The translations under genes were made by a program, and so were the position numbers. This document shows positions 1 through 33,638 of a stretch of 64,000 nucleotides of DNA, piece by piece (position 1 is the first letter of the stretch; each line of letters starts with the position of its first letter). This DNA comes from Paraspadella gotoi. Lineage: Eukaryota; Animalia; Chaetognatha. The notes below the pieces were generated by a model that did no database searches, was not told the DNA's origin, and saw nothing but the letters and a program-made list of their open reading frames with translations. The stretch lies in NCBI GenBank assembly GCA_051294375.1, contig CM119263.1, forward strand, positions 765,756 to 829,755, in the 5' to 3' direction.

Positions 1-449
1 GAAGATGACAGTAAATTTTTTACAACATGTTTTTATATTTTTGATTCAACTTTTATATGAAGAATCTGAATCTTTAATAAAAGTTAAAAAAATTTTTTTT
101 AAAAATTTACTATTTTATAAGAATATTACTACAAATATATTGTATTTTATATTCTGTTCCCGAAGTAAATACGAAAAAAATATTTTTTGTACTAGTTAAT
201 CATACTATCTTACATTTAAATATCCTTGTTTCCATCATTCAAATAATTTTTTTTGTTTCTGAGTGCTCCACTCTAGTGAATATACCGCCTCAACTGAATA
301 TATTTGATTAGCACAGAAACATGACAATATCTTACATAAATAATATATATAATAAATAATATATAATATAATATATAATTTTAATAAATGTTATAAAATG
401 AAATTGGTACAACCAATATAAAAATTATCCATTCATTTAATAAATAAGC

Positions 450-514
450 TATCTTGCCCCTGACTTTGGACAGGCTTTGTGGTGGTTTAAGGCCTCCATC
501 ACTCTTACAAGATA
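450..514 (-). ncRNA. Twister ribozyme (type P5), family C
   Basis: Same motif as 1100-1162, with a small insertion in the linker before P4. Confidence 0.7.
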
Positions 515-775
515 ATGACATAGCAGGTCCCTGCAAGATTTCAATCAAGACTCTCTCACAGTCTTGTTTATTCACTCCCAGAGTACCTGGCTTCCCTATC
601 AATGAAGTGGAAAATATTTCAAAGAATGTTTAAATTGTATGAAAAGACCACTCCCTTAAGTATTAGATCGGGGAATACTTATTGTACTCCGCACTAGCAT
701 CAAAATACAAGGAGCTGAATTTTATGAAATTGGTACAACCAATATAAAAATTATCCATTCATTTAATAAATAAAC

Positions 776-838
776 TATCTTGGCCCCTGACTTTGGACAG
801 GCTTTGGTGGTTTAAGCCTCCATCACTCTTACAAGATA
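776..838 (-). ncRNA. Twister ribozyme (type P5), family C
   Basis: Same motif as 1100-1162, with 1-nt indels that are probably read errors. Confidence 0.65.
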
Positions 839-1099
839 ATGACATAGCAGGTCCCTGCATGATTTCAATCAAGACTCTCTCAAGTCTTGTTTATTCACTC
901 CCAGAGTAACTGGCTTCCCTATCAATGAAGTGGAAAATATTTTCAAAGAATGTTTAAATTGTATGAAAAGACCACTCCCTTAAGTATTAGATCGGGGAAT
1001 ACTTATTGTACTCCGCACTAGCATCAAAATACAAGGAGCTGAATTTTATGAAATTGGTACAACCAATATAAAAATTATCCATTCATTTAATAAATAAGC

Positions 1100-1162
1100 T
1101 ATCTTGCCCCTGACTTTGGACAGGCTTTGGTGGTTTAAGGCCTCCATCACTCTTACAAGATA
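1100..1162 (-). ncRNA. Twister ribozyme (type P5), family C
   Basis: Minus strand reads UAUCUUGU-AA-GAGU-GA-UGGA-GGCCU-UAA-ACC-ACC-AAAG-CCUG-UCCAAAGU-CAGG-GG-CAAGAUA. P5 UAUCUUGU/GCAAGAUA, P4 CCUG/CAGG, T1 UGGA/UCCA, T2 AC/GU. Predicted cleavage U1137/A1136. Confidence 0.8.
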
Positions 1163-1614
1163 ATGACATAGCAGGTCCCTGCAAGATTTCAATCAAGACT
1201 CTCTCACAGTCTTGTTTATTCACTCCCAGAGTACCTGGCTTCCCTATCAATGAAGTGGAAAATATTTCAGAGAATGTTTAAATTGTATGAAAAGACTTAT
1301 AATAATGAAACAAATAATTTTGCAATTTTCATAGATTAAGACTTCGATAAAGTTGATACTATGGTGGGCTAAAATCCACCAACCGTTCATCAGCGGCCAT
1401 TGGTGCCGGAGGCAAGTCATTCGCCTCCCAACCCAAAGGTCGCACTTTCCACCAACAACAATTCACTGAAGAGACGCAACAGATTTCTCCCTATAGGAGG
1501 GGGGATGTATGGTGGACTAAAATCCACCAACCGTTCATCAGCAGCCATTGGTGCCGGAGGCAAGTCATTCGCCTCCCAACCCAAAGGTCCGGGGTTCTAG
1601 CCCGGTGGCCGCCT

Positions 1615-1689
1615 AGCAGTTAAGAGGGACGGGCGCTTAACCCGCCTGTAACATTGTTTTACAGCCTGATCCGAAGCTCAGGGACTGCT
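1615..1689 (+). ncRNA. Twister ribozyme (type P5), family A
   Basis: P5 AGCAGUU/GACUGCU, UAA-CCC-GCC, P3 UGUAA/UUACA, P4 CCUGA/UCAGG with loop UCCGAAGC. Confidence 0.75.
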
Positions 1690-2023
1690 TATATTGAACG
1701 GTTCTGTCATTAACATATAACAATAATTGCTGTCTCTTCATTGGTGAGCCCGACTTCCGAACACAACAGCAACAACACTTTCAGGCAACAAGCCTCAACC
1801 TGGCGATGCACTTTCCGCCAACAACTCATCAGGCGACATGCCTCAGCTTGGTGACGCACTTTCCAACAACAATTCACTGAGAGACGCAACAGATTTCTCC
1901 CTACGGAGGGGGGATGTATGGTGGACTAAAATCCACCAACCATTCATCACGCGCCATTAGTGCCGGAGGCAAGTCATTCGCCTCCCAACCCAAAGGTCCG
2001 GGGTTCTAGCCCGGTGGCCGCCT

Positions 2024-2099
2024 AGCAGTTAAGAGGGACGGGGCGCTTAACCCGCCTGTAACATGGTGTTACAGCCTGATCCAAAGCTCAGGGACTGCT
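2024..2099 (+). ncRNA. Twister ribozyme (type P5), family A
   Basis: Same fold; L4 is UCCAAAGC, giving one mismatch in pseudoknot T1. Confidence 0.72.
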
Positions 2100-2138
2100 T
2101 ATATTGAACAGTTNNNNNNNNNNNNNNNNNNNNNNNNN

Positions 2139-3009
2139 ATTATCCATTCATTTAATAAATAAGCTATCTTGCCCCTGACTTTGGACAGGCTTTGGTGGTT
2201 TAAGGCCTCCATCACTCTTACAAGATAATGACATAGCAGGTCCCTGCAAGATTTCAATCAAGACTCTCTCACAGTCTTGTTTATTCACTCCCAGAGTACC
2301 TGGCTTCCCTATCAATGAAGTGGAAAATATTTCAAAGAATGTTTAAATTGTATGAAAAGACCACTCCCTTAAGTATTAGATCGGGGAATACTTATTGTAC
2401 TCCGCACTAGCATCAAAATACAAGGAGCTGAATTTTATGAAATTGGTACAACCAATATAAAAATTATCCATTCATTTAATAAATAAACTATCTTGCCCCT
2501 GACTTTGGACAGGCTTTGGTGGTTTAAGGCCTCCATCACTCTTACAAGATAATGACATAGCAGGTCCCTGCATGATTTCAATCAAGACTCTCTCACAGTC
2601 TTGTTTATTCACTCCCAGAGTAACTGGCTTCCCTATCAATGAAGTGGAAAATATTTCAAAGAATGTTTAAATTGTATGAAAAGACCACTCCCTTAAGTAT
2701 TAGATCGGGGAATACTTATTGTACTCCGCACTAGCATCAAAATACAAGGAGCTGAATTTTATGAAATTGGTACAACCAATATAAAAATTATCCATTCATT
2801 TAATAAATAAGCTATCTTGCCCCTGACTTTGGACAGGCTTTGGTGGTTTAAGGCCTCCATCACTCTTACAAGATAATGACATAGCAGGTCCCTGCAAGAT
2901 TTCAATCAAGACTCTCTCACAGTCTTGTTTATTCACTCCCAGAGTACCTGGCTTCCCTATCAATGAAGTGGAAAATATTTCAGAGAATGTTTAAATTGTA
3001 TGAAAAGAC
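2139..3009 (-). mobile_element. Family C tandem repeat (assembly duplicate of 399-1296); twisters at 2165-2227, 2489-2551 and 2813-2875
   Basis: Near-identical to 422-1296; period 324 bp (2438 to 2762). Confidence 0.72.
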
Positions 3010-3327
3010 TTATAATAATGAAACAAATAATTTTGCAATTTTCATAGATTAAGACTTCGATAAAGTTGATACTATGGTGGGCTAAAATCCACCAACCGTT
3101 CATCAGCGGCCATTGGTGCCGGAGGCAAGTCATTCGCCTCCCAACCCAAAGGTCGCACTTTCCACCAACAACAATTCACTGAAGAGACGCAACAGATTTC
3201 TCCCTATAGGAGGGGGGATGTATGGTGGACTAAAATCCACCAACCGTTCATCAGCAGCCATTGGTGCCGGAGGCAAGTCATTCGCCTCCCAACCCAAAGG
3301 TCCGGGGTTCTAGCCCGGTGGCCGCCT

Positions 3328-3403
3328 AGCAGTTAAGAGGGACGGGGCGCTTAACCCGCCTGTAACATTGTTTTACAGCCTGATCCGAAGCTCAGGGACT
3401 GCT
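3328..3403 (+). ncRNA. Twister ribozyme (type P5) in family A LTR
   Basis: AGCAGUU-AA-GAGG-GA-CGGG-GCGCU-UAA-CCC-GCC-UGUAA...UUACA-G-CCUGA-UCCGAAGC-UCAGG-GACUGCU. T1 CGGG/UCCG. Predicted cleavage U3352/A3353. Confidence 0.82.
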
Positions 3404-3455
3404 TATATTGAACGGTTCTGTCATTAACATATAACAATAATTGCTGTCTCTTCAT

Positions 3456-3468
3456 TGGTGAGCCCGAC
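3456..3468 (+). promoter_or_regulatory. Primer-binding site, tRNA-Trp-like (TGGTGAGCCCGAC)
   Basis: Starts 1 nt after the LTR end; resembles the tRNA-Trp PBS TGGTGACCCCGACGTGAT. Confidence 0.75.
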
Positions 3469-3669
3469 TTCCGAACACAACAGCAACAACACTTTCAGGC
3501 AACAAGCCTCAACCTGGCGATGCACTTTCCGCCAACAACTCATCAGGCGACATGCCTCAGCTTGGTGACGCACTTTCCACCAACAACAATTCACTGAAGA
3601 GACGCAACAGATTTCTCCCTACGGGAGGGGGGGATGTATGGTGGACTAAAATCCACCAACCATTCATCA

Positions 3670-3741
3670 GCGGCCATTAGTGCCGGAGGCAAGTCATTCG
3701 CCTCCCAACCCAAAGGTCCGGGGTTCTAGCCCGGTGGCCGC
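3670..3741 (+). promoter_or_regulatory. tRNA-like module (Pol III A/B-box candidate) inside family A LTR; also at 3254-3325
   Basis: 72 nt closed by GCGGCCA/TGGCCGC; tRNA-Gly(CCC)-like TTCGCCTCCCA; B-box-like GGTTCTAGCCC in a CCGGG/CCCGG stem. Confidence 0.6.
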
Positions 3742-3743
3742 CT

Positions 3744-3819
3744 AGCAGTTAAGAGGGACGGGGCGCTTAACCCGCCTGTAACATGGTGTTACAGCCTGAT
3801 CCAAAGCTCAGGGACTGCT
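3744..3819 (+). ncRNA. Twister ribozyme (type P5) in family A 3' LTR
   Basis: Same fold as 3328-3403; P3 UGUAACA/UGUUACA. Predicted cleavage U3768/A3769. Confidence 0.78.
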
Positions 3820-4183
3820 TATATTGAACAGTTCTGTCATTAACATATAACAATAATTACTGTCTCTTCAATACAAAAATAAAAATGAAGCGCTAATGAA
3901 AATTTAATATCTCTCAAAAAGTCTTTTTTGCCGGTTCGTGTAATTCAAGGAAATAAAGAACGTTTAAATTCATTTACAAAGTGATCCTACCTAATGTTAT
4001 TCTGACCGGATCCCTGCATTTTAGTTATTCCGTTTCGTTCGTCTGGAAAATTACAATCAATGTACTTATATCATCAAACGGTTTGACGTCCGAGTTCATG
4101 TTTAAATGAAAATCGGTGTATTTTTAGCTTTGTAATTTTTTTTGGATTTTCATTTGTTACATCGCAGGACGAGAAAAACTCAC

Positions 4184-4291
4184 CCGATTTGGTTGCCTTG
4201 GCGACGAGGACGCTTCTCGAAGATTTAAAGTCAACCACTCGGATTTGTCGTTTCTCTTGTCTCGCTCTGCACTGATCTTCAGAGAGCAAGC
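4184..4291 (-). CDS. EcR: NR1H/EcR-like nuclear receptor, T-box/hinge exon (copy 1)
   Basis: AG acceptor at 4293-4292 and GTGAGT donor at 4183. Splices in phase to give GMREEC-LLSEDQCRARQEKRQ, matching the NR1H post-DBD motif. Confidence 0.8.
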
Positions 4292-4364
4292 CTTTGATCA
4301 AAAGAATCACTCGGCTAAATATTTCTCACACTTATATCACGATGAAGTCACTCCGAATACTCAC

Positions 4365-4667
4365 ATTCTTCCCTCATGCCAACTTCCCGACACTTTTGCA
4401 AGCGACACGCCTGACACTTTCGCCGCAGCCACATGTCCATCTGCGAGATGCAGCGGCCGCCATATTTGCAGCGGTAGGACTTGTCTGCACCGCGGGTGAT
4501 TGAGCGGCGGAAGAAGCCTTTGCAGCCTTCGCAGGAGAGGGCGTTGTAGTGATACCCGGAGGCGCGGTCTCCGCAGATCAGGCACAGCTCTTCCTCGCCT
4601 TTCGTCGTCCCGTGTTTTCCCAAAGCAGCGCGACCTTTCTTTGAGCTGACGACGAACTTACTCGGAT
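4365..4667 (-). CDS. EcR: NR1H/EcR-like nuclear receptor, C4 zinc-finger DNA-binding-domain exon (copy 1)
   Basis: KKG...[34 protein letters not shown]...CKYGGRC...[24 protein letters not shown] acceptor, GTGAGT donor, 303 nt, phase 1-1. Confidence 0.92.
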
Positions 4668-5001
4668 CTAGGAATCGAAAATTAAGTTTAAGGTTGAAAT
4701 GAGATGAATTTATTATAAATATGAATTTAAATATGAATTTAAAATAAAAAGAAATTAAGATATAAACGCATAAAAGCTATTTTAAATTACTTAGTTAGTA
4801 TTTTTATTATTTAAAATTATGATGTTTTATCAGTAAAATTTAGCAAAACTAGTAAAATTACGAAATGATAAAAAACGATAATGATTTTGTAATTTTTGAT
4901 TCATTTATTATGAATTTTTTTAAAATTTGTAATTATAACATATATTCTGGTGGTCCTATCACCACAGATGGATTAAAGCTGTTTCTCTCGCAGCGCCTCA
5001 G

Positions 5002-5052
5002 TGGCTCAGTGGACTAATGCACCATCCCAATGTGCGTCCCTGGTTCGAGCCC
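5002..5052 (+). promoter_or_regulatory. Pol III type-2 internal promoter candidate (A box TGGCTCAGTGG, B box GGTTCGAGCCC) in family B LTR
   Basis: Near-consensus A and B boxes with tRNA-like spacing, flanked by a GCCTCAG/CTGAGGT acceptor-like stem; repeated in the 3' LTR. Confidence 0.72.
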
Positions 5053-5060
5053 TGAGGTTG

Positions 5061-5141
5061 TCATGTAGAAAGTGGGATGGACCGGGTAACCCGCCTGTAG
5101 GCATGGGCCTACTGCCAGATCCAAAGCTCTGGACTACATGA
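5061..5141 (+). ncRNA. Twister ribozyme (type P5) in family B 5' LTR
   Basis: P5 UCAUGUAG/CUACAUGA; GUGG-GA-UGGA-CCGGG-UAA-CCC-GCC; P3 GUAGGC/GCCUAC; P4 CCAGA/UCUGG with loop UCCAAAGC; T1 UGGA/UCCA. Predicted cleavage U5087/A5088. Confidence 0.85.
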
Positions 5142-5213
5142 ACATGCTGTCTCGCTGTCGCCACGAGGTGACACCGCTGCGGGTGTGGCGCCCTGTAAAA
5201 CCAGCCTCTTCAA

Positions 5214-5245
5214 TGGTGAGCCCGACGTGATATGAACACGCAACC
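5214..5245 (+). promoter_or_regulatory. Extended tRNA-Trp primer-binding site
   Basis: TGGTGAGCCCGACGTGAT-A-TGAACACGCAACC versus the reverse complement of the metazoan tRNA-Trp 3' end as I recall it, TGGTGACCCCGACGTGAT-T-TGAACACGCAACC. Confidence 0.85.
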
Positions 5246-5514
5246 CGGGCATGATAATACTCCTCTGCCCTTGATGTGGTTTGAGCTACGCAGCTGCCAC
5301 TCAAAGCAAGGCCACCAGAATGAAGAGAGGTTCAGCGGAGAGACATGCGCTTCATCCCCCTGCTTCGTACTCTCATATGCGAGAGTCCTGGGGCGGCTGT
5401 CTGGTGGTCCTATCACCACAGATGGATTAAAGCTGTTTCTCTCGCAGTGCCTCAGTGGCTCAGTGGACTAATGCACCATCCCAATGTGCGTCCCTGGTTC
5501 GAGCCCTGAGGTTG

Positions 5515-5595
5515 TCATGTAGAAAGTGGGATGGACCGGGTAACCCGCCTGTAGGCATGGGCCTACTGCCAGATCCAAAGCTCTGGACTACATGA
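5515..5595 (+). ncRNA. Twister ribozyme (type P5) in family B 3' LTR
   Basis: Identical to 5061-5141. Predicted cleavage U5541/A5542. Confidence 0.85.
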
Positions 5596-5883
5596 ACATG
5601 CTGTCTCGCTGTCGCCACGAGGTGACACCGCTGCGGGTGTGGCGCCCTGTAAAACCAGCCTCTTCAATATCTAAATTTTTTTTTTAGCTATCAAAATTCA
5701 AAACTCGTAAATAAAATGACTTAATTCCAATTGGATCATTGTGGACTCAAAAAAAAAAGTAGTAAACAGAGAAAAGAATTTCATTGCAGAAAGTTTTATA
5801 TAGCAATTCCCTGTCTCTTTACTTAAATGATAGTAAATAAATGTTAAAATCGTGATACGGGAATTCCTCTTCACCGCCCTTAC

Positions 5884-6033
5884 CCAACGACTGCGTGGGA
5901 GCGAGGGTGTGGCAAGCTTCCGCTCCGCAGTCCGCCTTAAATCCGGCGCCGGCAAAGTGAACGAGTTGGGAAGATGGCGCCTCACGTGAGAAGGGAAATC
6001 CCGGTTCCATCGCCGCGTCGTGGGACGGACTCT
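5884..6033 (-). CDS. EcR: NR1H/EcR-like receptor, A/B-region exon (copy 1)
   Basis: CTCACAG acceptor and GTAAGG donor; 150 nt, open, phase 1-1, compatible with both neighbouring exons (ESPSHDAAMEPGF...TQSL). Confidence 0.65.
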
Positions 6034-6122
6034 CTGTGAGAAAAGAATCGGGAATGAGTCATTTCTAAGAAATCATTTCGAATTTTTCAGAATTCGTGGC
6101 GGAAAAGAAAAAAAGGTCGTAC

Positions 6123-6980
6123 CTTCGAAGGAATATTTCAAAGACTCGTTGCTGTAGAGGCATCCGTAATAAAAATAATCGGATGATTGCTGATCTTGCT
6201 GATGTTGTTGTTGAAGCAAGTGGCGTTGATGCTGAAGCTGCAGGAGTGCCTCGTCGGACAGAGTCGCAGCATCGAAGGTCTCTCGAAGATGCGTTGCTTC
6301 CATCGAGTAAGAGTCGATCTCGTGCTTTATGCTCGGCTGCCCTCGTCGCGCCTGTCGGGCTGTCCATCAGGCCGCCCGACGTGCCCAGTGGCTTGCCCGC
6401 TGGGCGTGCTCTCGAAGCGACCCGCCGGGCAGTCCGACCGAGAGGGCAATTGTTCTTCCGGAGATGGAAACGCGGCTTCAAGAGGAGGATAACCGGAAGC
6501 GAGGGTAGACGATTCCATATGAAGTCTGTGATTGTGATTATGATTGTGATGATTGTGATGATGAAGATGATGATGATCGTCCCAAGCGACTCCATCGTAG
6601 GGCAAGACTTGTGATTCTGTCTGTCGTGATTCGACATGGAATGGTTCCATCGGATGTGAATCGACTGGTAAGGGGAGGAGGAGGCGAAGATGGTAGGCGA
6701 GTGAAAGGAGGAGGTCGTGGAAGGAACCGGCGTCAACGCCGCTCCCAGGGACACGGCGTCTCTTTCCTCCAGCGCCGGTGGGCGCGCCGCTCTGCCGCAC
6801 GGCAGCGAAGCAGACGCCGCAGCCTCGCAGGAGAGAGGAGAAGAGACGCCGTAATAAGAGACGCCGTGAGCGCCGCCGACGCCGTCAGCGCCGTGAGCGC
6901 CGTGGACGCCGTGGACGCCGCCGACGCCGAGGGAAACGCCGATCGGGTAGAGAGATTCCGAGTAGTCATGGAGAGTGGCG
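6123..6980 (-). CDS. EcR: NR1H/EcR-like receptor, large His/Gln-rich A/B exon (copy 1, two 1-nt deletions)
   Basis: (CT)n-CACAG acceptor and GTACGA donor. Frame broken near 6340 and 6667 relative to the open copy 2. Confidence 0.55.
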
Positions 6981-6981
6981 C

Positions 6982-7083
<102 letters not shown>

Positions 7084-7180
7084 AAGTAATTTAATGTTGT
7101 AATGTTATAATGTTCTTTTGATATAAAGTTATTTTTTAAAAGACATCAATACGTCATCAACGACCATCACACAAAAAGAC

Positions 7181-7539
7181 CTGATTCCATTCTCATGATA
7201 AGATTCCATCTTGCAAGGCTCCTCCTCTGCCCCCTGCCGTCCAATCAGCGAGTAAGTTTGATCGACGGGCGACATTCCCGACGGAAGGTGGGATTCGCCG
7301 AGAATCGACGACGACTGGCAAGAGGGTAAGTTAATCTCGGTCTGGCACTGAGCCGGATGGCACGGCGCCGTATGGCACGGCGCAGCTTCCGGCGACTTGT
7401 CGGCGTCGTCGTCTCCGTAGCGCCATCGCCGCATTCCGGCGTGACGTCGGATTTGGCGTCGGTAACGTCGGCGCCGGAGAAAGACTCCAATCGCGGCGTC
7501 AAAATCAACGCCGAAAAATCGAGATTCGACGGCGCTCAT
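7181..7539 (-). CDS. EcR: Putative first coding exon of the NR1H/EcR-like gene (copy 1)
   Basis: ATG-started GC-rich ORF ending in a weak CAG/GTCTTT donor in phase 2, which matches the next acceptor. Confidence 0.4.
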
Positions 7540-8343
7540 TTTCCAGGAGATGCGTCAATGGTTTGTACGTAATTGAACTTATTTTCCCAAAACGCCCCTT
7601 TTCAACTTGAAATTCGGAATGGAATAAGTTTTTTTGGTTTAGAATTTAGCTTAAAGGTTCGGATTAAGGATTAGGCTACAAATTAAGTTTAGGTTTAAGT
7701 TAATAATTAGGGTTGGAGATTAGGGTAACGGATTAAGCCTAAAATTTAAAGATAAGGCCTAATCTTTAAATAGGGTTAAGGTAAGGGTTAAAAATTGAGT
7801 TAGGATTAGAGACTAAAAATAAGGTTTATATCATACCTTTTGAACTAAATTAGAATTGAAAGTAAATTTACGAATTAAGGAACAGAAATGTGGCGCTTTT
7901 GGTAAAGAGAGCACAAGTACTTTTCGGGAGATTTATACTGTTTGGTTTTATTGTTTATTCGCGAGTTCGAAAGACAAAGTGACTTTAACGTCGAAGAAAA
8001 ACAGAAGGTCGTCGACGCTGGGATTCGAACCCGGGACGACGACTTCGGTTCGCCGGCCTCTCGAGTCGGCGCCCTTTCGGGCGACGCCGGCGGAGAAAAG
8101 AGGGCGCCGATCGGGGGGAAGAGTCGATGACGCCGGTTCTAGAGCGAGAGAGAGAGAGAGAAAGAGATGGAGACGGAGTCGTGGAGGAGTTTGAAGGGTC
8201 GACGGACGGCCAGACGTACTGAGGGTTCTTTGCCCCGAGGTCGTCCTCCTCGCGAGTTGGCGACCTCGAGCGGATGATCGGAAGACGATTCCAGAGTCGA
8301 AGGGGAGAGAAGCGGGAGGTCAAGATCTTGGATCATATGTTGG

Positions 8344-8432
8344 GACGCGAAGAGGACGCGAAGAGGACGCGAAGAGGATGCGGAGAGGACGCGAAGAGGA
8401 CGCGAAGAGGACGCGAAGAGGATGCGAAGAGG
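8344..8432. repeat. 11-bp minisatellite (GACGCGAAGAG)n; duplicate at ~16738-16826
   Basis: Direct tandem units visible. Confidence 0.8.
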
Positions 8433-8714
8433 AAGCGTTTGAATTGGAAGTGAAGAGAATGGATAGAAAATCTTAAACGAAAAAAATATTTCAATTATAG
8501 TCATATTTTAATTAATAATTTCAAAAAAGTCTTCAAAATAATTATTATTTAGATTTACATTAGGAATTAGAAGGAATTAAGGAATTAAGCAATTAATTGC
8601 CATTATTAAGAAGTGAACAAATATTTTATAAGGAACTATGCGCATTTCTCTATGCGCGTTAATCTTATTGAATTTTATTCATTAATTGGTTACGAATACT
8701 TTACCATTTAATAA

Positions 8715-8880
8715 ACAACCAATATAAAAATTAATTTATTAATCTTGCTTCTATTTGGACAATGGACAGTTGGTTGAAAACCTTCATCTTTCAAGATAAA
8801 AACATAGAAGGACTTCAGAACCCAACAATTTTTTTAATCAAAACTCTACTACTAATTAGGTGGGTATTTAAGTTTGTTTA
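8715..8880 (-). mobile_element. Degenerate relic of family C repeat (duplicate at ~17110-17275)
   Basis: ACAACCAATATAAAAATTA...ATCTTG...TTTGGACA...CAAGATAA..ACATAG aligns with the family C unit; ribozyme core eroded. Confidence 0.55.
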
Positions 8881-9403
8881 CCATAGAAAGTATAAATAAA
8901 AACAAAATTATCAAAAAATAGTAGGAAGCGTGAGCATTGAGCATTTTACCAACTGAAAACTTAATATTTTTTGAGGTTATAGGAAAACAAAAATTAGATT
9001 TCGACAACTGAGTAGAACTATGGACGCCGTTTCTCCAGCGCTAAAGCGGCGCTCTTTCGACTTCCGGCGTCGATTCATCCTCCTCGGCGTCACTTTCGCG
9101 CAACTTTCCCCGTAGAAATGACGCCTCCTTATTGGTCGATAGCGCGGCCGACGTCGCCGATGAAAAGACCGTACCCGATTGGTCGGAGAGATAAGACGCA
9201 CGACTCCGATTGGACGAAAGAGATCGTGAGAAAGCGGATAAGATCTCTCGAAGCGACGAAATCTCGGCCGCTGATTGGTCCGCACGGATTCCAGGGTGGA
9301 AAAAAAAGAAACATCGTCGCAACCGGGACGCGAAAATCTATCGCTCGACTCTCGGGGAGAAAAAGCGAAGCGGGAAATTGAGCGAGAAATATGAAGGAGA
9401 GAG

Positions 9404-9481
<78 letters not shown>

Positions 9482-10498
9482 TAGCGGAAGAAGCGGCAAT
9501 CCTCTTCCAGGAAGCGGTTCACGAATAAGTAACCGCGAAAGGAACGATTGTGAAGGTGAAACAATGTGGTGAAGATCATTATTGATTTATATTGTTAAAT
9601 TGTTTTCAAAAAAAATAGTGGTGATTGTGGTGAATAGAAAAACAACTTTTGTGCAAGTGAAAACCATGATCAAAGTATTTGATTAAAAAGAATATTTTGA
9701 GGTAAAATATTTAGAATGGATAATTTAGTAGTAATATCAGTAGTATTTAGTAGTAATATCAGTAAGCGTTGGATATAAACTAAGCTAAACCTCATCTGCT
9801 CCAAACCAAAGGGGACGAGCCCAAACGAAAAGAGTGACAATCCGGTGAAACAACCGATGAGAAGCCGACCGCCTCAATCGGAAAGCAAAACCAAGGGAAG
9901 GAAATTTCTTTTCGAGTCACTGGAGGAACTTCACACTCTCAACACGGTTCCCTATTTTCTTTTCGGGGTGTCTAGGGAACCGTGTCAAAGAAGTGAAAGA
10001 ACTATATACTGTCTGGCATGAGGACTTTTTCTTTTCTCTTTCCATGGATAATTAAAAGTGATATTGAGGGCGGTTCAGCAATAATAATATGAGAAAGTCA
10101 TGCATTTTCGAATCTGGGTTTATTTTCCATACCGCGCTAAGTTTAGATAAGTTGGACCATTTTTTAAAAATCAGCTACTGTTAAATAACAGTAGCTGATT
10201 TTAGTGTTAGTTTTTCGTGTTATAGTATATTAGGCCAATGAAGAAAAAAAAATTATGTCGCGAAAAATTGGGATTTTTATCAACAGAAAATGATTTTTCG
10301 TTCGGTTGAATCACGAAATCAGATTTTTGTGAAAGTGATGAGAGTGAGAAGTGAGAAGTGAGGTGAATTTTTGAAAAAGAACTCATCGTAATTGCGAAAT
10401 CTGTGAAGCAAACTAATAAAAAACTTTACTATAAATACTTGTTACAGGAGAACTTGACGAGTAAGATTAAGAAGTAGCTCAACCGTGCTATGACTATA

Positions 10499-10746
10499 GG
10501 GATTTGATCCTTGGCTTCTTCGCTTTTAGGGGCCGGAGAAGCGGGGCAAACTGCCATCAGACGTTTTAAATAAATCTTACTTTTAATTTACATATATATT
10601 TACTTAAAAAACGATTTAATTGAATCATAATAAAAAGAGTCATCTCCCGGGATCGAATCGGGCCCCGAAAGCGAAGAAGTCGGGATCAAATCTCACAGAC
10701 CTTATTGAGTAAGGCCATGAGTTCTTGACCATTAGCTACTCGGATC
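10499..10746. mobile_element. Two inverted fragments of a possible tRNA-derived SINE
   Basis: GGATTTGATCC..CTTCTTCGCTTT..GGGGCC (10499-10534) is inverted at 10660-10692; the minus strand has an A-box-like TAGCTAATGG and a degenerate B box. Confidence 0.35.
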
Positions 10747-11035
10747 GATCCCAAGAAAGTACCTGCTTTCAAAAATATGAAAAAAAAAAATTTAAATTTT
10801 TTAAAATTTTTATGGTGAGTACTATGTATAAATATGGGCGTATGAAAAAATTGAAAAATAAAACAATCAATCATAACAATAATTGTCCGGCGCGCCCCGA
10901 GTGCTCTTTGTCAACTGCGAAGAAACATGATTACCGAAATGATTACGGTTCGGATATTCTGAGCCGCAAATTAAATTATGATAATTATGCATAGACTTTC
11001 GATTTCGTTGTTTTGGGATTTAGGAAAAACAGTTT

Positions 11036-11168
11036 TTTGAAATGTGGCAACGAATTTTTATGTAAGTCGGACATGTTTCGACTCTTTCAGTTTTAGAGTC
11101 TTCATCAGCTGTAAGAGTCGAAACATGTCCGACTTACTTGTCATAAAAATTCGTTGCCACATTTCAAA
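11036..11168 (-). mobile_element. Inverted repeat containing a minimal type-I hammerhead core; Penelope-like pLTR remnant
   Basis: ~50-bp arms. Minus strand CUGAUGA-A-GACUCU...AGAGUC-GAAACAUGUC spans 11108-11070. Confidence 0.65.
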
Positions 11169-11475
11169 TTAGCGAAACCATTTTGTTTTTTCTTAATTTT
11201 TGGAGATTTTGTCCTCAAAATGCATTTAAAGAAAATAGTGTTTTGTCGACGATACTAATAATATAAATCGAAACGCAAATGAAATTAATTAAATATTTAA
11301 AATTAGAAAACAATGAAGAAGATGAAGAAGAAAAGAGAAAAAATGAAACAAAGTTAACTTCCGAAGAAAGTAGAAAGAGGAGGAGGAGCAGTAGGAGGAG
11401 GAGGAGGAGGAGAAAGGTTTCTCTCACGCGACAAAGAGAAAAGTGAGAGTGAAGGAGAGTTAGTTAGAAAGAAGA

Positions 11476-11535
<60 letters not shown>

Positions 11536-11771
11536 GGTAGACTTAAAAAGCAATAATGAAATGTGAAAATAATAAGAGAAAAAACGAAAATAGTAGGATT
11601 ATGGAAATCAGTAATCTTTGGTTTTTCTCGTAATGATTCACATCGCACCTGTTGTCAAAGGATGGAGTTGGACATCGAGGGAACCATAAAAGTCCAACAC
11701 GTCGTCGTTGTTGTTGTTGCAATTATCGTCGGTGTCGTCGTTGTCGTCGTTTGTCGTCATCGTCGTCGGTA

Positions 11772-11802
<31 letters not shown>

Positions 11803-12105
11803 CGTCGATGTGGTCAATTCCTTATTCGCTTATTTTCATTGTAGTCAGTCATTGTTGTACAATGTAGCATTGACAATTGACATTATGTCAAAAATTGTTT
11901 TCAAAAAATTTTGACCCACTAGATAACTGACCACAACTCAGCTCACCCTTCATTCAACCACAAGACCTCACCCACTTAAACTCACCCACTCACCGTCCTT
12001 CAAAATCTTTTTTCTTTTTCCCTCTTTGCCTTCACAGTCAACAGGAATGACCAATCGTTTTTCACATAACTTATCCTCCTCTCTCTCTCTCTCTCTCCTC
12101 TCTCT

Positions 12106-12162
<57 letters not shown>

Positions 12163-12579
12163 CTCGACGGCGGTTCCTAAGCCTTTCCTGTCGGCCTCCC
12201 TTCATTCGCTCCATACATCTATTCGCTCTGTCATTAACATATAACAATAATTACTGTCTCTTCAATACAAAAATAAAAATGACGCGCTAATGAAAATTTA
12301 ATATCTCTCAAAAAAGTCTTTTTTGCCGGTTCGTGTAATTCAAGGAAAATAAAGAACGTTTAAATTCATTTACAAAGTGATCCTACCTAATGTTATTCTG
12401 ACCGGATCCCTGCATTTTAGTTATTCCGTTTCGTTCGTCTGGAAAATTACAATCAATGTACTTATATCATCAAACGGTTTGACGTCCGAGTTCATGTTTA
12501 AATGAAAATCGGTGTATTTTTAGCTTTGTAATTTTTTTTGGATTTTCATTTGTTACATCGCAGGACGAGAAAAACTCAC

Positions 12580-12687
12580 CCGATTTGGTTGCCTTGGCGA
12601 CGAGGACGCTTCTCGAAGATTTAAAGTCAACCACTCGGATTTGTCGTTTCTCTTGTCTCGCTCTGCACTGATCTTCAGAGAGCAAGC
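12580..12687 (-). CDS. EcR: NR1H/EcR-like hinge exon (copy 2)
   Basis: Identical to 4184-4291. Confidence 0.75.
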
Positions 12688-12760
12688 CTTTGATCAAAAG
12701 AATCACTCGGCTAAATATTTCTCACACTTATATCACGATGAAGTCACTCCGAATACTCAC

Positions 12761-13063
12761 ATTCTTCCCTCATGCCAACTTCCCGACACTTTTGCAAGCG
12801 ACACGCCTGACACTTTCGCCGCAGCCACATGTCCATCTGCGAGATGCAGCGGCCGCCATATTTGCAGCGGTAGGACTTGTCTGCACCGCGGGTGATTGAG
12901 CGGCGGAAGAAGCCTTTGCAGCCTTCGCAGGAGAGGGCGTTGTAGTGATACCCGGAGGCGCGGTCTCCGCAGATCAGGCACAGCTCTTCCTCGCCTTTCG
13001 TCGTCCCGTGTTTTCCCAAAGCAGCGCGACCTTTCTTTGAGCTGACGACGAACTTACTCGGAT
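12761..13063 (-). CDS. EcR: NR1H/EcR-like DBD exon (copy 2)
   Basis: Identical to 4365-4667. Confidence 0.88.
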
Positions 13064-13340
13064 CTAGGAATCGAAAATTAAGTTTAAGGTTGAAATGAGA
13101 TGAATTTATTATAAATATGAATTTAAATATGAATTTAAAATAAAAAGAAATTAAGATATAAACGCATAAAAGCTATTTTAAATTACTTAGTTAGTATTTT
13201 TATTATTTAAAATTATGATGTTTTATCAGTAAAATTTAGCAAAACTAGTAAAATTACGAAATGATAAAAACGATAATGATTTTGTAATTTTTGATTCATT
13301 TATTATGAATTTTTTTAAAATTTGTAATTATAACATATAT

Positions 13341-14060
13341 TCTGGTGGTCCTATCACCACAGATGGATTAAAGCTGTTTTCTCTCGCAGCGCCTCAGTGG
13401 CTCAGTGGACTAATGCACCATCCCAATGTGCGTCCCTGGTTCGAGCCCTGAGGTTGTCATGTAGAAAGTGGGATGGACCGGGTAACCCGCCTGTAGGCAT
13501 GGGCCTACTGCCAGATCCAAAGCTCTGGACTACATGAACATGCTGTCTCGCTGTCGCCACGAGGTGACACCGCTGCGGGTGTGGCGCCCTGTAAAACCAG
13601 CCTCTTCAATGGTGAGCCCGACGTGATATGAACACGCAACCCGGGCATGATAATACTCCTCTGCCCTTGATGTGGTTTGAGCTACGCAGCTGCCACTCAA
13701 AGCAAGGCCACCAGAATGAAGAGAGGTTCAGCGGAGAGACATGCGCTTCATCCCCTGCTTCGTACTCTCATATGCGAGAGTCCTGGGGCGGCTGTCTGGT
13801 GGTCCTATCACCACAGATGGATTAAAGCTGTTTCTCTCGCAGTGCCTCAGTGGCTCAGTGGACTAATGCACCATCCCAATGTGCGTCCCTGGTTCGAGCC
13901 CTGAGGTTGTCATGTAGAAAGTGGGATGGACCGGGTAACCCGCCTGTAGGCATGGGCCTACTGCCAGATCCAAAGCTCTGGACTACATGAACATGCTGTC
14001 TCGCTGTCGCCACGAGGTGACACCGCTGCGGTGTGGCGCCCTGTAAAACCAGCCTCTTCA
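13341..14060 (+). mobile_element. Family B twister LTR element (duplicate of 4946-5666); twisters at 13457-13537 and 13910-13990
   Basis: Same LTR/PBS/TSD structure and the same flanks. Confidence 0.85.
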
Positions 14061-14276
14061 ATATCTAAATTTTTTTTTTAGCTATCAAAATTCAAAACTC
14101 GTAAATAAAATGACTTAATTCCAATTGGATCATTGTGGACTCAAAAAAAAAGTAGTAAACAGAGAAAAGAATTTCATTGCAGAAAGTTTTATATAGCAAT
14201 TCCCTGTCTCTTTACTTAAATGATAGTAAATAAATGTTAAAATCGTGATACGGGAATTCCTCTTCACCGCCCTTAC

Positions 14277-14426
14277 CCAACGACTGCGTGGGAGCGAGGG
14301 TGTGGCAAGCTTCCGCTCCGCAGTCCGCCTTAAATCCGGCGCCGGCAAAGTGAACGAGTTGGGAAGATGGCGCCTCACGTGAGAAGGGAAATCCCGGTTC
14401 CATCGCCGCGTCGTGGGACGGACTCT
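14277..14426 (-). CDS. EcR: NR1H/EcR-like A/B exon (copy 2)
   Basis: Duplicate of 5884-6033. Confidence 0.62.
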
Positions 14427-14514
14427 CTGTGAGAAAGAATCGGGAATGAGTCATTTCTAAGAAATCATTTCGAATTTTTCAGAATTCGTGGCGGAAAAGA
14501 AAAAAAGGTCGTAC

Positions 14515-15374
14515 CTTCGAAGGAATATTTCAAAGACTCGTTGCTGTAGAGGCATCCGTAATAAAAATAATCGGATGATTGCTGATCTTGCTGATGTTGT
14601 TGTTGAAGCAAGTGGCGTTGATGCTGAAGCTGCAGGAGTGCCTCGTCGGACAGAGTCGCAGCATCGAAGGTCTCTCGAAGATGCGTTGCTTCCATCGAGT
14701 AAGAGTCGATCTCGTGCTTTATGCTCGGCTGCCCCTCGTCGCGCCTGTCGGGCTGTCCATCAGGCCGCCCGACGTGCCCAGTGGCTTGCCCGCTGGGCGT
14801 GCTCTCGAAGCGACCCGCCGGGCAGTCCGACCGAGAGGGCAATTGTTCTTCCGGAGATGGAAACGCGGCTTCAAGAGGAGGATAACCGGAAGCGAGGGTA
14901 GACGATTCCATATGAAGTCTGTGATTGTGATTATGATTGTGATGATTGTGATGATGAAGATGATGATGATCGTCCCAAGCGACTCCATCGTAGGGCAAGA
15001 CTTGTGATTCTGTCTGTCGTGATTCGACATGGAATGGTTCCATCGGATGTGAATCGACTGGGTAAGGGGAGGAGGAGGCGAAGATGGTAGGCGAGTGAAA
15101 GGAGGAGGTCGTGGAAGGAACCGGCGTCAACGCCGCTCCCAGGGACACGGCGTCTCTTTCCTCCAGCGCCGGTGGGCGCGCCGCTCTGCCGCACGGCAGC
15201 GAAGCAGACGCCGCAGCCTCGCAGGAGAGAGGAGAAGAGACGCCGTAATAAGAGACGCCGTGAGCGCCGCCGACGCCGTCAGCGCCGTGAGCGCCGTGGA
15301 CGCCGTGGACGCCGCCGACGCCGAGGGAAACGCCGATCGGGTAGAGAGATTCCGAGTAGTCATGGAGAGTGGCG
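14515..15374 (-). CDS. EcR: NR1H/EcR-like large A/B exon (copy 2, fully open)
   Basis: 860 nt, phase 2-1, no stops: ATLHDYSESLYPIG...DDHHHLHHHNHH...QQQHQQDQQ...LKYSFE. Confidence 0.62.
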
Positions 15375-15434
15375 CTGTGAGAGAGAGAGAGAGAGAGAGA
15401 GAAGAGAGAGAGAGAAGAGAGAGAAGAAAGAGAG

Positions 15435-15472
<38 letters not shown>

Positions 15473-15569
15473 AAGTAATTTAATGTTGTAATGTTATAAT
15501 GTTCTTTTGATATAAAGTTATTTTTTAAAAGACATCAATACGTCATCAACGACCATCACACAAAAAGAC

Positions 15570-15928
15570 CTGATTCCATTCTCATGATAAGATTCCATCT
15601 TGCAAGGCTCCTCCTCTGCCCCCTGCCGTCCAATCAGCGAGTAAGTTTGATCGACGGGCGACATTCCCGACGGAAGGTGGGATTCGCCGAGAATCGACGA
15701 CGACTGGCAAGAGGGTAAGTTAATCTCGGTCTGGCACTGAGCCGGATGGCACGGCGCCGTATGGCACGGCGCAGCTTCCGGCGACTTGTCGGCGTCGTCG
15801 TCTCCGTAGCGCCATCGCCGCATTTCCGGCGTGACGTCGGATTTGGCGTCGGTAACGTCGGCGCCGGAGAAAGACTCCAATCGCGGCGTCAAAATCAACG
15901 CCGAAAATCGAGATTCGACGGCGCTCAT
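15570..15928 (-). CDS. EcR: Putative first coding exon (copy 2)
   Basis: Duplicate of 7181-7539 with compensating 1-nt indels. Confidence 0.4.
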
Positions 15929-17779
15929 TTTCCAGGAGATGCGTCAATGGTTTGTACGTAATTGAACTTATTTTCCCAAAACGCCCCTTTTCAACTTGAA
16001 ATTCGGAATGGAATAAGTTTTTTTGGTTTAGAATTTAGCTTAAAGGTTCGGATTAAGGATTAGGCTACAAATTAAGTTTAGGTTTAAGTTAATAATTAGG
16101 GTTGGAGATTAGGGTAACGGATTAAGCCTAAAATTTAAAGATAAGGCCTAATCTTTAAATAGGGTTTAAGGTAAGGGTTAAAAATTGAGTTAGGATTAGA
16201 GACTAAAAATAAGGTTTATATCATACCTTTTGAACTAAATTAGAATTGAAAGTAAATTTACGAATTAAGGAACAGAAATGTGGCGCTTTTGGTAAAGAGA
16301 GCACAAGTACTTTTCGGGAGATTTATACTGTTTGGTTTTATTGTTTATTCGCGAGTTCGAAAGACAAAGTGACTTTAACGGTCGAAGAAAAACAGAAGGT
16401 CGTCGACGCTGGGATTCGAACCCGGGACGACGACTTCGGTTCGCCGGCCTCTCGAGTCGGCGCCCTTTCGGCGACGCCGGCGGAGAAAAGAGGGCGCCGA
16501 TCGGGGGGAAGAGTCGATGACGCCGGTTCTAGAGCGAACGAGAGAGAGAGAGAGAAAGAGATGGAGACGGAGTCGTGGAGGAGTTTGAAGGGTCGACGGA
16601 CGGCCAGACGTACTGAGGGTTCTTTGCCCCGAGGTCGTCCTCCTCGCGAGTTGGCGACCTCGAGCGGATGATCGGAAGACGATTCCAGAGTCGAAGGGGA
16701 GAGAAGCGGGAGGTCAAGATCTTGGATCATATGTTGGGACGCGAAGAGGACGCGAAGAGGACGCGAAGAGGATGCGGAGAGGACGCGAAGAGGACGCGAA
16801 GAGGACGCGAAGAGGATGCGAAGAGGAAGCGTTTGAATTGGAAGTGAAGAGAATGGATAGAAAATCTTAAACGAAAAAAATATTTCAATTATAGTCATTA
16901 TTTTAATTAATAATTTCAAAAAAGTCTTCAAATAATTATTATTTAGATTTACATTAGGAATTAAGAAGGAATTAAGGAATTAAGCAATTAATTGCCATTA
17001 TTAAGAAGTGAACAAATATTTTATAAGGAACTATGCGCATTTCTCTATGCGCGTTAATCTTATTGAATTTTATTCATTAATTGGTTACGAATACTTTACC
17101 ATTTAATAAACAACCAATATAAAAATTAATTTATTAATCTTGCTTCTATTTGGACAATGGACAGTTGGTTAAAACCTTCATCTTTCAAGATAAAAACATA
17201 GAAGGACTTCAGAACCCAACAATTTTTTTAATCAAAACTCTACTACTAATTAGGTGGGTATTTAAGTTTGTTTACCATAGAAAGTATAAATAAAAACAAA
17301 ATTATCAAAAAATAGTAGGAAGCGTGAGCATTGAGCATTTTACCAACTGAAAACTTAATATTTTTTGAGGTTATAGGAAAACAAAAATTAGATTTCGACA
17401 ACTGAGTAGAACTATGGACGCCGTTTCTCCAGCGCTAAAGCGGCGCTCTTTCGACTTCCGGCGTCGATTCATCCTCCTCGGCGTCACTTTCGCGCAACTT
17501 TCCCCGTAGAAATGACGCCTCCTTATTGGTCGATAGCGCGCCGACGTCGCCGATGAAAAGACCGTACCCGATTGGTCGGAGAGATAAGACGCACGACTCC
17601 GATTGGACGAAGAGATCGTGAGAAAGCGGATAAGATCTCTCGAAGCGACGAAATCTCGGCCGCTGATTGGTCCGCACGGATTCCAGGGGAAAAAAAAGAA
17701 CATCGTCGCAACCGGGACGCGAAAATCTATCGCTCGACTCTCGGGGGAGAAAAAGCGAAGCGGGAAATTGAGCGGAGAA

Positions 17780-17883
<104 letters not shown>

Positions 17884-19428
17884 TAGCGGAAGAAGCGGCA
17901 ATCCTCTTCCAGGAAGCGGTTCACGAATAAGTAACCGCGAAAGGAACGATTGTGAAGGTGAAACAATGTGGTGAAGATCATTATTGATTTATATTGTTAA
18001 ATTGTTTTCAAAAAAAATAGTGGTGATTGTGGTGAATAGAAAAACAACTTTTGTGCAAGTGAAAACCATGATCAAAGATTATTTGATTAAAAAGAATATT
18101 TTGAGGTAAAATATTCAGAATGGATAATTTAGTAGTAATATCAGTAGTATTTAGTAGTAATATCAGTAAGCGTTGGATATAACTAAGCTAAACCTCATCT
18201 GCTCCAAACCAAAGGGGACGAGCCCAAACGAAAAGAGTGACAATCCGGTGAAACAACCGATGAGAAGCCGACCGCCTCAATCGGAAAGCAAAACCAAGGG
18301 AAGGAAATTTCTTTTCGAGTCACTGGAGGAACTTCACACTCTCAACACGGTTCCCTATTTTCTTTTTCGGGGTGTCTAGGGAACCGTGTCAAAGAAGTGA
18401 AAGAACTATTACTGTCTGGCATGAGGACTTTTTCTTTTCTCTTTCCATGGATAATTAAAAGTGATATTGAGGGCGGTTCAGCAATAATAATTATGAGAAA
18501 GTCATGCATTTTCGAATCTGGGTTTATTTTCCATACCGCGCTAAGTTTAGATAAGTTGGACCATTTTTTAAAAATCAGCTACTGTTAATAACAGTAGCTG
18601 ATTTTAGTGTTAGTTTTTCGTGTTATAGATATTAGGCCAATGAAGAAAAAAAAATTATGTCGCGAAAAATTGGATTTTTATCACAGAAAATGATTTTTCG
18701 TTCGGTGAATCACGAAATCAGATTTTGTGAAAGTGATGAGAGTGAGAAGTGAGAAGTGAGGTGAATTTTTGAAAAGAACTCATCGTAATTGCGAATCTGT
18801 GAAGCAAACTAATAAAAACTTTACTATAAATACTTGTTACAGGAGAACTTGACGAGTAAGATTTAAGAAGTAGCTCAACCGTGCTATAGACTATAGGGAT
18901 TTGATCCTGGCTTCTTCGCTTTAGGGGCCGGAGAAGCGGGGCAAACTGCCATCAGACGTTTTAAATAAACTTACTTTTAATTTACATATATATTTACTTA
19001 AAAAACGATTTAATTGAATCATAATAAAAAGAGTCATCTCCCGGGATCGAATCGGGCCCCGAAAGCGAAGAAGTCGGGATCAAATCTCACAGACCTTATT
19101 GAGTAAGGCCATGAGTTCTTGACCATTAGCTACTCGGATCGATCCCAAGAAAGTACCTGCTTTCAAAAATATGAAAAAAAAAATTTAAATTTTTAAAATT
19201 TTTTATGGTGAGTACTATGTATAAATATGGGCGTATGAAAAAATTGAAAAATAAAACAATCAATCATAACAATAATTGTCCGGCGCGCCCCGAGTGCTCT
19301 TTGTCAACTGCGAAGAACATGATTACCGAAATGATTACGGTTCGGATATTCTGAGCCGCAAATTAAAATTATGATAATTATGCATAGACTTTCGATTTCG
19401 TTGTTTTGGGATTTAGGAAAAACAGTTT

Positions 19429-19561
19429 TTTGAAATGTGGCAACGAATTTTTATGTAAGTCGGACATGTTTCGACTCTTTCAGTTTTAGAGTCTTCATCA
19501 GCTGTAAGAGTCGAAACATGTCCGACTTACTTGTCATAAAAATTCGTTGCCACATTTCAAA
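19429..19561 (-). mobile_element. Hammerhead-containing inverted repeat (duplicate of 11036-11168)
   Basis: Identical sequence. Confidence 0.62.
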
Positions 19562-19858
19562 TTAGCGAAACCATTTTGTTTTTTCTTAATTTTTGGAGAT
19601 TTTGTCCTCAAAATGCATTTAAAGAAAATAGTGTTTTGTCGACGATATTAATAATATAAATCGAAACGCAAATGAAATTAATTAAATATTTAAAATTAGA
19701 AAACAATGAAGGAAGATGAAGAAGAAAAGAGAAAAAATGAAACAAAGTTAACTTCCGAAGAAGTAGAAAGAGGAGGAGGAGCAGTAGGAGGAGGAGGAGG
19801 AGGAGAAAGGTTTCTCTCACGCGACAAAGAGAAAAGTGAGAGTGAAGGAGAGTTAGTT

Positions 19859-19913
<55 letters not shown>

Positions 19914-20143
19914 CTTAAAAAGCAATAATGAAATGTGAAAATAATAAGAGAAAAACGAAAAATAGTAGGATTATGGAAATCAGTAATCTTTGGTTTTTCT
20001 CGTAATGATTCACATCGCACCTGTTGTCAAAGGATGGAGTTGGACATCGAGGGAACCATAAAAGTCCAACACGTCGTCGTTGTTGTTGTTGCAATTATCG
20101 TCGGTGTCGTCGTTGTCGTCGTTTGTCGTCATCGTCGTCGGTA

Positions 20144-20174
<31 letters not shown>

Positions 20175-20472
20175 CGTCGATGTGGTCAATTCCTTATTCG
20201 CTTATTTTCATTGTAGTAGTCATTGTTGTACAATGTACATTGACATTGACATTATGTCAAAAATTGTTTCAAAAATATTTTGACCCAACTAGATAACTGA
20301 CCACACCTCAGCTCACCCTTCATTCAACCACAAGACCTCACCCACTTAAACTCACCCACTCACCTCCTTCACAAATCTTTTTTCTTTTTCCCTCTTTTGC
20401 CTTCACAGTCCAACAGGAATGACCAATCGTTTCACATAACTTATCCTCTCTCTCTCTCTCTCTCCGTCTTCT

Positions 20473-20512
<40 letters not shown>

Positions 20513-20607
20513 GCTCGACGCGTTCCTAAGCCTTTCCTGTCGGCTCCCTTCATTCCGCTCATCATCTATTCGCATTGTTTTCTTTTCCTCGTTAATTTCT
20601 CGTTTTT

Positions 20608-33519: not shown

Positions 33520-33638
33520 ATCTTGAAACAGGGATGGGCCCCTTAAGCCAGCAATCCCGGCACCTGTCAAAAGTCCGGAGTAAGATAGATTATTTATTAA
33601 ATGAATGGATAATTATTACATTGGTTGTAGTAATTTCA
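33520..33638 (+). mobile_element. Diverged family C-related fragment with a degenerate twister
   Basis: ATCTTG...GGGATGGGCCCCTTAAGCCAGC...CCTGTCAAAAGTC...TAAGAT followed by TTATTTATTAAATGAATGGATAATT...TTTCA, as in family C. Confidence 0.6.

Follow-up and report, generated by a model that had tools for sequence, protein, structure and literature searches.

The 64,000-nucleotide window of the Paraspadella gotoi genome analysed here (contig CM119263.1, positions 765,756 to 829,755) contains a short element whose LTRs combine a tRNA-like module with a predicted twister ribozyme fold, which raises the question of what kind of mobile element this is and what the ribozyme fold may do for it. The reading put forward here, to which we assign a probability of about 0.5, treats the element (family A) as a mini LTR retroelement of the Helenus type: non-coding, present in many copies and with a type-P5 twister fold in its LTRs, it likely works as an animal LTR retrozyme.

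The order of parts given for family A in the original prediction (LTR, tRNA-like module, twister, PBS) is found in full, each part at its predicted place (Table 1), but some of the boundaries shift. The interval 3073-3870 does contain two LTRs, an interior and a target-site duplication (TSD); it starts, however, with a third, truncated LTR and a 67-nt interior remnant, and the two-LTR part measures 650 nt (3221-3870). The truncated LTR and the remnant (3073-3220) look like a deleted LTR-interior unit of a three-LTR tandem. Recombination or template switching can also produce such tandems with no circle involved (PMC7215508), a point against the retrozyme reading.

A small hairpin opens each LTR (z -2.8 on folding), as had been described, but the LTR does not begin at its TGGTGG: it begins with TA, 2 nt further 5'. 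This start follows from the position of the TSD and from junction contigs that stop at 3637, and it likewise places the TG behind the purine tract (3635-3636), previously listed together with the tract, in the interior. The left end is not the usual TG in either family, TA (3073) and TC (4946) preceding TGGTGG in A and in the second family, B; some published Helenus LTRs likewise begin with TA (PMC10886601). Between LTR1 and LTR2 of family A there are 8 differences in 234 positions. At 3662, 3679, 3803, 3830 and 3859, three of which are CpG sites, an A of LTR2 stands opposite a G of LTR1, and there is no C-to-T difference; CpG decay or one-strand deamination during copying could account for these changes.

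Table 1. Features of the family A element and of the two families compared with it (positions in the window)
Feature	Position	Strand	Description	Basis or remark
Left TSD	3069-3072	+	ATAC	same 4 nt at 3871-3874
Truncated extra LTR	3073-3154	+	first 82 nt: hairpin and 5' part of tRNA module	2 and 3 differences from LTR1 and LTR2
Interior 3' remnant	3154-3220	+	last 67 nt, with purine tract	aligns to 3569-3636
LTR1	3221-3454	+	234 nt, TA...CTCTTCA	8 differences from LTR2
tRNA-like module of LTR1	3254-3326	+	A box 3262-3273 (7/8), B box 3306-3316 (8/9)	
Type-P5 twister fold 1	3328-3403	+	predicted cut between U3352 and A3353; P1 palindrome GCGC 3347-3350	descriptor match without T1 mismatch; helices in fold
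Predicted cut-to-cut unit RNA	3353-3768	+	416 nt	inferred from the two cut sites
Interior	3455-3636	+	non-coding, 182 nt; 48-nt repeat at 3495-3587	
PBS	3456-3468	+	complementary to tRNA-Trp(CCA) 3' end, 12/13 nt	compared by eye with bee tRNA-Trp end, Fig. S2 of PMC10886601
Polypurine tract	3623-3634	+	followed by TG linker 3635-3636	sequence
LTR2	3637-3870	+	234 nt; 5' hairpin 3639-3658; tRNA-like module 3670-3742	junction contigs end at 3637 and 3870
Type-P5 twister fold 2	3744-3819	+	predicted cut between U3768 and A3769; P1 palindrome GCGC 3763-3766	one T1 mismatch
Right TSD	3871-3874	+	ATAC	X1 contig bridges 3847-4599
Family B element	4946-5666	+	267-nt LTRs (1 difference), ATAT TSD, predicted twister cuts at 5087 and 5541 (predicted unit RNA 454 nt), P1 palindrome CCGG	
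Family C	2139-3009	-	324-nt tandem repeat, same twister subtype, P1 palindrome GGCC	comparison set, outside the element

Sequencing contigs indicate that family A occurs at many sites. At least 143 distinct contigs in run X1 leave the reference exactly at 3637 (a second pass gave 125 in X2 and 142 in X1), as do 58 in X4 and 27 in X9, and the left flanks are AT-rich and mostly end in ATAT. On the right side, 91 X1 contigs depart from the reference at 3870, 39 at 3871 and 35 at 3873, and most of them continue with GTAT or ATAT. Thus, the target is RTAY-like, slightly wider than the ATAY originally described; at the one locus of each family, the TSD is ATAC for A and ATAT for B. The summed depth of the family A LTR in X1 is about 13,000 times that of a neighbouring intron, a figure that is not a copy number. 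That older subfamilies exist is shown by a 328-nt contig, whose solo LTR carries 42 differences. X10 (organism B), with 2 low-depth contigs, was left out, and DNA pattern scans of viral contigs, metagenome contigs and prokaryote genomes gave no match.

Judged by its sequence features, the chassis of family A is that of Helenus (TRIMp3; Kojima 2024), in which LTRs, a tRNA-like module, a PBS and a 4-bp TSD are combined in elements of 311-1263 bp with two LTRs and a non-coding interior (PMC10886601). Size, LTRs, boxes, PBS, polypurine tract and 4-bp TSD all agree. Helenus elements are likewise non-coding TRIMs with tRNA-derived A and B boxes in each LTR and, in animals, a 4-bp TSD; they occur also as solo LTRs and tandems, a Gypsy helper has been proposed for them, and Helenus-2_SyJa has a tRNA-Trp PBS (PMC10886601). 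The PBS reference used here is the bee tRNA-Trp end from the Helenus supplement (PMC10886601); family A matches it at 12 of 13 positions and family B at 17 of 18, and the single mismatch is common to both. No credible Pfam match was found in the frames of the family A interior. What differs from Helenus is that in A and B a twister comes after the tRNA part: this fold behind the tRNA module is what is new, the LTR, tRNA-like module, PBS and TSD design being already known.

The tRNA-like module was scored against the A and B box consensus. At tRNA spacing, the family A match was reached in 15 of 5000 shuffles and the family B match (A box 7/8, B box 9/9) in 1 of 5000. ARAGORN called no tRNA at its default threshold and called the family A module only at a lowered one. 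A functional tRNA was rejected: the family B module adopts a rod-like fold and has an incomplete T stem. A TTTT at 3371 in LTR1 could stop Pol III; the absence of TTTT elsewhere is not significant, as 19% of shuffles also lack it. The imperfect boxes of A (7/8 and 8/9) and this TTTT count against the retrozyme reading.

Behind the module, each LTR contains a fold like that of the type-P5 twister (RF02684), with the strand order P5-P2-GA-T1-P1-UAA-P2-T2-P3-P4 and the loop NCCN-AA-GC (PMC6154101 and Rfam consensus). In descriptor and alignment, the predicted pseudoknots T1 and T2 and helices P2, P4 and P5 are present, and the core letters (U-A cut site, catalytic G and loop-4 AA) are invariant in A, B and the tandem repeat family C. 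Unlike the reference type, P1 is here a loopless palindrome and not a hairpin, P2 is shortened, and A and B lie below Rfam reporting: Rfam found no twister in either, even at E up to 10, and no hammerhead match in the element, where the twister fold takes that place. Family C scores 25.8 bits (E 0.015) against RF02684, below the gathering cut-off of 37.6. That Rfam is blind to the A and B motif, and that its P2 has no more than 2 bp and a further pair spanning a bulge, are further points against the retrozyme reading. A descriptor with seven fixed letters (GA, UAA, AA) and pairing rules, written after the motifs had been seen, has 14 matches in the 64-kb window, all in families A, B and C, compared with a mean of 0.14 and a maximum of 2 in 100 block shuffles; when the family A LTR was shuffled, 1 of 20,000 sequences gave a match.

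Cleavage is predicted from this fold at one site in each LTR, and the 416-nt spacing of the two predicted cuts equals the unit length originally proposed. The T1 pairing CGGG/UCCG of the original prediction holds in LTR1 only, LTR2 having UCCA and thus a mismatch; at position 3803, however, 84-98% of the depth has the T1-pairing base, so the LTR2 mismatch is a minority state.

Comparison of the families argues that the fold has been maintained. Families A and B have little primary sequence in common over the whole LTR, as had been noted (56% identity, against a mean of 46% and a maximum of 52% in 200 shuffles), but homology is detectable (71% over 112 nt, E 4.5e-8). P5 and P4 pair as first written, with compensatory changes between A and B: in a gap-free register, both sides have changed in 5 of 6 shared P5 pairs. 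Among A, B and C, compensatory changes occur in P5, P4, P2, T1 and T2, family C contributing a double change at one P2 pair and at one T2 pair. An alignment of six motifs, with P4 of C shifted by one column and two degenerate motifs (33519 and 63757) taken in, has 84.3% of its cells paired, against 70.8% when shuffled and 29-45% when slid, and of its 27 pairs 10 have both partners altered; these pairs were counted on the same sequences from which the structure was derived. Among the best 40 of 87 supported variants of A copies, none falls on GA 3757-58, UAA 3768-70 or AAGC 3804-07; most are CpG decay (19 of 37 LTR rows), and all six non-CpG variants above 10% in 3670-3819 in this small sample keep pairing or sit in loops. 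These observations support the argument of the original prediction against a chance fold: family A is an element family that has been conserved and has diversified.

That the fold is nevertheless due to chance, or the element to misassembly, is very improbable: the descriptor and covariation controls oppose it, and the LTR, the LTR-PBS joint and the right junction of the 3073-3870 insertion are all present in sequencing contigs. Such an explanation could point to the missing Rfam match in A and B and to the duplicated blocks and N gaps of the window. Blocks 424-2113 and 3833-12226 each have an almost exact copy adjoining them (99.1% and 98.3%); the second copies of A (1360-2113) and B (13341-14061) lie within these block duplications, one of which is beside an N gap, and the window thus holds one independent locus per family. 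The back-to-back, near-identical duplications at 424-3833 and 3833-20573 differ by small indels, one of them spans a 25-N gap and the second starts inside an A LTR; they are probably assembly artefacts. The LTRs of family B differ from each other at 1 of 267 positions.

Family C, which occupies 398-1296 and 2139-3009 on the minus strand, has one type-P5 twister fold per 324-nt unit, and no LTR or PBS was seen in it. From its sequence it looks like an animal non-LTR retrozyme in which a twister replaces the hammerhead. Single degenerate relatives of the C twister lie on the plus strand at 33519-33592 and 63757-63821; they are 79-84% like C over about 120 nt and have a GGGCCC palindrome at P1, and their P2, T1 and T2 pairs are broken.

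The presence of the same twister subtype in this adjoining non-LTR repeat lends some substance to the idea that the ribozyme is a passenger: the LTR would have captured either a SINE made up of tRNA and twister parts or a fragment of a repeat of Penelope type or C type, and the element would move as a plain TRIM with the twister inactive or irrelevant. Helenus itself is thought to have arisen by SINE insertion into an LTR (PMC10886601). A passenger is nonetheless improbable, given that A and B are 56% alike, yet every core letter is kept and P5, P4, T1 and the palindrome covary, and that the common variants of A copies spare the core (among the best 40 of 87).

The P1 palindrome suggests how an active twister could be used. 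Directly behind the T1 strand, A has GCGC, B has CCGG and C has GGCC, each a perfect palindrome and each different from the other two; if they are independent, the chance of this is about 2e-4. Being loopless, such a palindrome can form at most 1-2 bp within one copy, and no hairpin, compared with 4-6 bp between two copies, a pattern pointing to cleavage by paired copies. Twister P1 has been reported to be dispensable, but cleavage without it to be inefficient, and type I hammerheads of animals are described as cleaving as dimers when one helix is weak (PMC7761336). Several B variants of equal depth (probably one contig) at 5081-5104 have an altered P1 region that is still self-complementary over 6 nt, and the cut-site base is also altered.

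Folding models differ among the families in this respect. Unconstrained co-folds of two C motifs give a strand-swapped dimer with P1 between the copies; for two B motifs the outcome is likewise a swapped dimer, with pairing across the P1 region. The corresponding co-fold of two A motifs has no inter-copy P1, and the probability of this helix in the precursor ensemble is 0.007 for A and 0.145 for B in models that omit pseudoknots; the values for A count against the retrozyme reading. Swapped dimers have lower energies (-46.3 versus -37.8 kcal/mol in A, -56.9 versus -46.6 kcal/mol in B), but any hairpin RNA gains energy as a swapped dimer, so these energies are not independent support. The dimer step therefore rests on covariation and not on energies.

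Under the retrozyme reading, Pol III transcription would begin at the tRNA-like module of the 5' LTR and continue past the interior into the 3' LTR. Since the palindrome of each P1 has no loop and cannot be closed by one copy alone, P1 would form between the two LTR twisters by strand swapping, and they would cut at 3352/3353 and 3768/3769. The released 416-nt RNA would have no terminal redundancy, and ordinary LTR strand transfer needs a terminal repeat in the RNA. P5 would hold the ends together and a host ligase would close the circle, which would retain one twister with poor cutting activity. A Gypsy-type helper would then prime at the tRNA-Trp PBS, copy round the circle and rebuild two or more LTRs, and the rebuilt DNA would insert at RTAY-like sites with a 4-bp duplication. 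Ligation to a circle followed by copying by a Gypsy helper appears to be the most economical reading of the last steps, one that we hold to be about as probable as its contrary; circle copying by a Gypsy helper has been proposed for plant retrozymes (PMC7761336). The fuller proposal, a Pol III-driven animal LTR retrozyme whose twisters are active only as a strand-swapped pair joined by the palindromic P1, is tentative and falls somewhat short of even odds. If it is true, cleavage and closure into a stable circle would be restricted to full two-LTR transcripts, and solo LTRs in host transcripts would stay uncut.

A linear cycle of the kind proposed for Helenus would also make use of the twister. 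Here it would act as an end-former that cuts slowly, or in one LTR only, and replaces a T-run terminator; a terminal repeat (for example the 100-nt tRNA module) would be kept, and normal strand transfer would proceed without a circle. In most of the published Helenus LTRs examined, the place behind the tRNA part that the twister occupies in A and B is taken by a T-rich stretch, and ordinary LTR replication has been proposed for Helenus (PMC10886601). A strand-swapped dimer would, however, build both active sites at once and favour double cutting, and P5 would keep the cut ends together; both points speak against the linear cycle, which is less probable than the retrozyme reading.

The predicted circle was also considered in folding models and contigs. 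The circular fold of the 416-nt unit has -126.5 kcal/mol and was equalled by 1 of 100 shuffles, and P5 re-forms across the junction in the circular folds of both A and B; with only 55% of its bases paired, the A circle is a point against the retrozyme reading. The joint by which the 416-nt unit goes back from 3768 to 3353 was found in DNA run X1. A junction read of this kind cannot diagnose circles, because reading through any single LTR gives an identical sequence. In X9 and X4, contig depth passes the predicted cut without a step, and contigs cannot show RNA ends, level or strand. The LTR-to-interior ratio is about 12 in X4 and X9 versus 4-5 in X1 and X2, the opposite of what abundant unit circles would lead one to expect, but poly(A) selection would lose circles, and the ratio was counted neither for nor against them. 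CpG-decay variants amount to 0.8% in X4 and X9, 2.6% in X2 and 6.7% in X1.

Retrozymes are divided in reviews into plant LTR and animal non-LTR forms, both hammerhead-bearing, the animal ones having neither LTRs nor PBS nor polypurine tract (PMC7761336); a 2026 preprint makes the same split, and the word "twister" occurs 0 times in it. Family A resembles the plant LTR retrozymes in being non-autonomous, with one ribozyme per LTR, a PBS and polypurine tract, a 4-bp TSD, and solo and multimeric copies, and differs from them in that theirs is a type III hammerhead, their primer is tRNA-Met, their circles of about 700 nt have been shown experimentally and their hosts are plants (PMC4918200, PMC7761336). 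Without a hammerhead, family A is not a member of the retrozymes as defined, but it likely works like one. Perere-3 of Schistosoma mansoni, with its T-variant twisters, offers another parallel, a twister serving a retrotransposon with a weak or variable P1; it is, however, a non-LTR RTE element with one 5'-end ribozyme whose P1 is formed with the flank, and it has no LTR, PBS or circle (PMC8501958). Cassandra TRIMs share the Pol III promoter inside the LTR and the tandem LTR-interior arrays, but they are 5S-derived, belong to plants and have no ribozyme mentioned in the source (PMC7215508). Literature covered largely at the level of titles and abstract openings, most subscription journals and Repbase apart, yielded no twister-bearing LTR element, animal LTR retrozyme or natural dimeric twister.

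Published Helenus sequences contain a possible counterpart. The LTRs of two wasp elements, Helenus-2_SyJa-LTR and Helenus-2_SyUm-LTR, appear on inspection by eye to contain the core of a type III hammerhead behind the tRNA part, with a GUC triplet, a CUGAUGA and GAAA core and complementary loops I and II, and both have a tRNA-Trp-type PBS (PMC10886601). This hammerhead goes unmentioned in the main text examined, where "twister" occurs 0 times and "ribozyme" once, in a reference title (PMC10886601). No twister was seen by eye in the published animal Helenus consensus sequences, and the twister loop words tccaaagc, tccgaagc and tcctaagc occur 0 times in the supplement, in which line breaks may hide matches; the fungal sequences were covered by motif search only, and of the 5 occurrences of ctgatgag in the supplement, 4 were inspected (PMC10886601). 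If the retrozyme reading of family A is true, both halves of the retrozyme rule would be broken, by an LTR type in an animal and by a twister; twister ribozymes would have a second role in retrotransposons, and family A would provide a natural dimer-gated twister, of which the literature covered gave no published case. Together with the hammerhead-bearing wasp Helenus, it would then define a recurring animal class of tRNA-promoter LTR retrozymes with interchangeable ribozymes, and published Helenus and other TRIM libraries are worth rescanning for ribozymes.

The elements A and B flank, on the opposite strand, a minus-strand exon at about 4365-4598, which lies 0.5 kb from element A. The exon codes for a domain of the C4 zinc-finger type (Pfam E 1.8e-25) that most resembles ecdysone and bile-acid receptors, and most of its highest-identity named matches (80-83%) are ecdysone receptors of molluscs and other lophotrochozoans, which marks the host as animal and probably lophotrochozoan. 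X9, which was guessed to be an RNA run, has one 1944-nt contig that covers this exon only, as a spliced mRNA would. Family C has the same orientation as the exon. Compared with solved structures, this DNA-binding exon has two small insertions.
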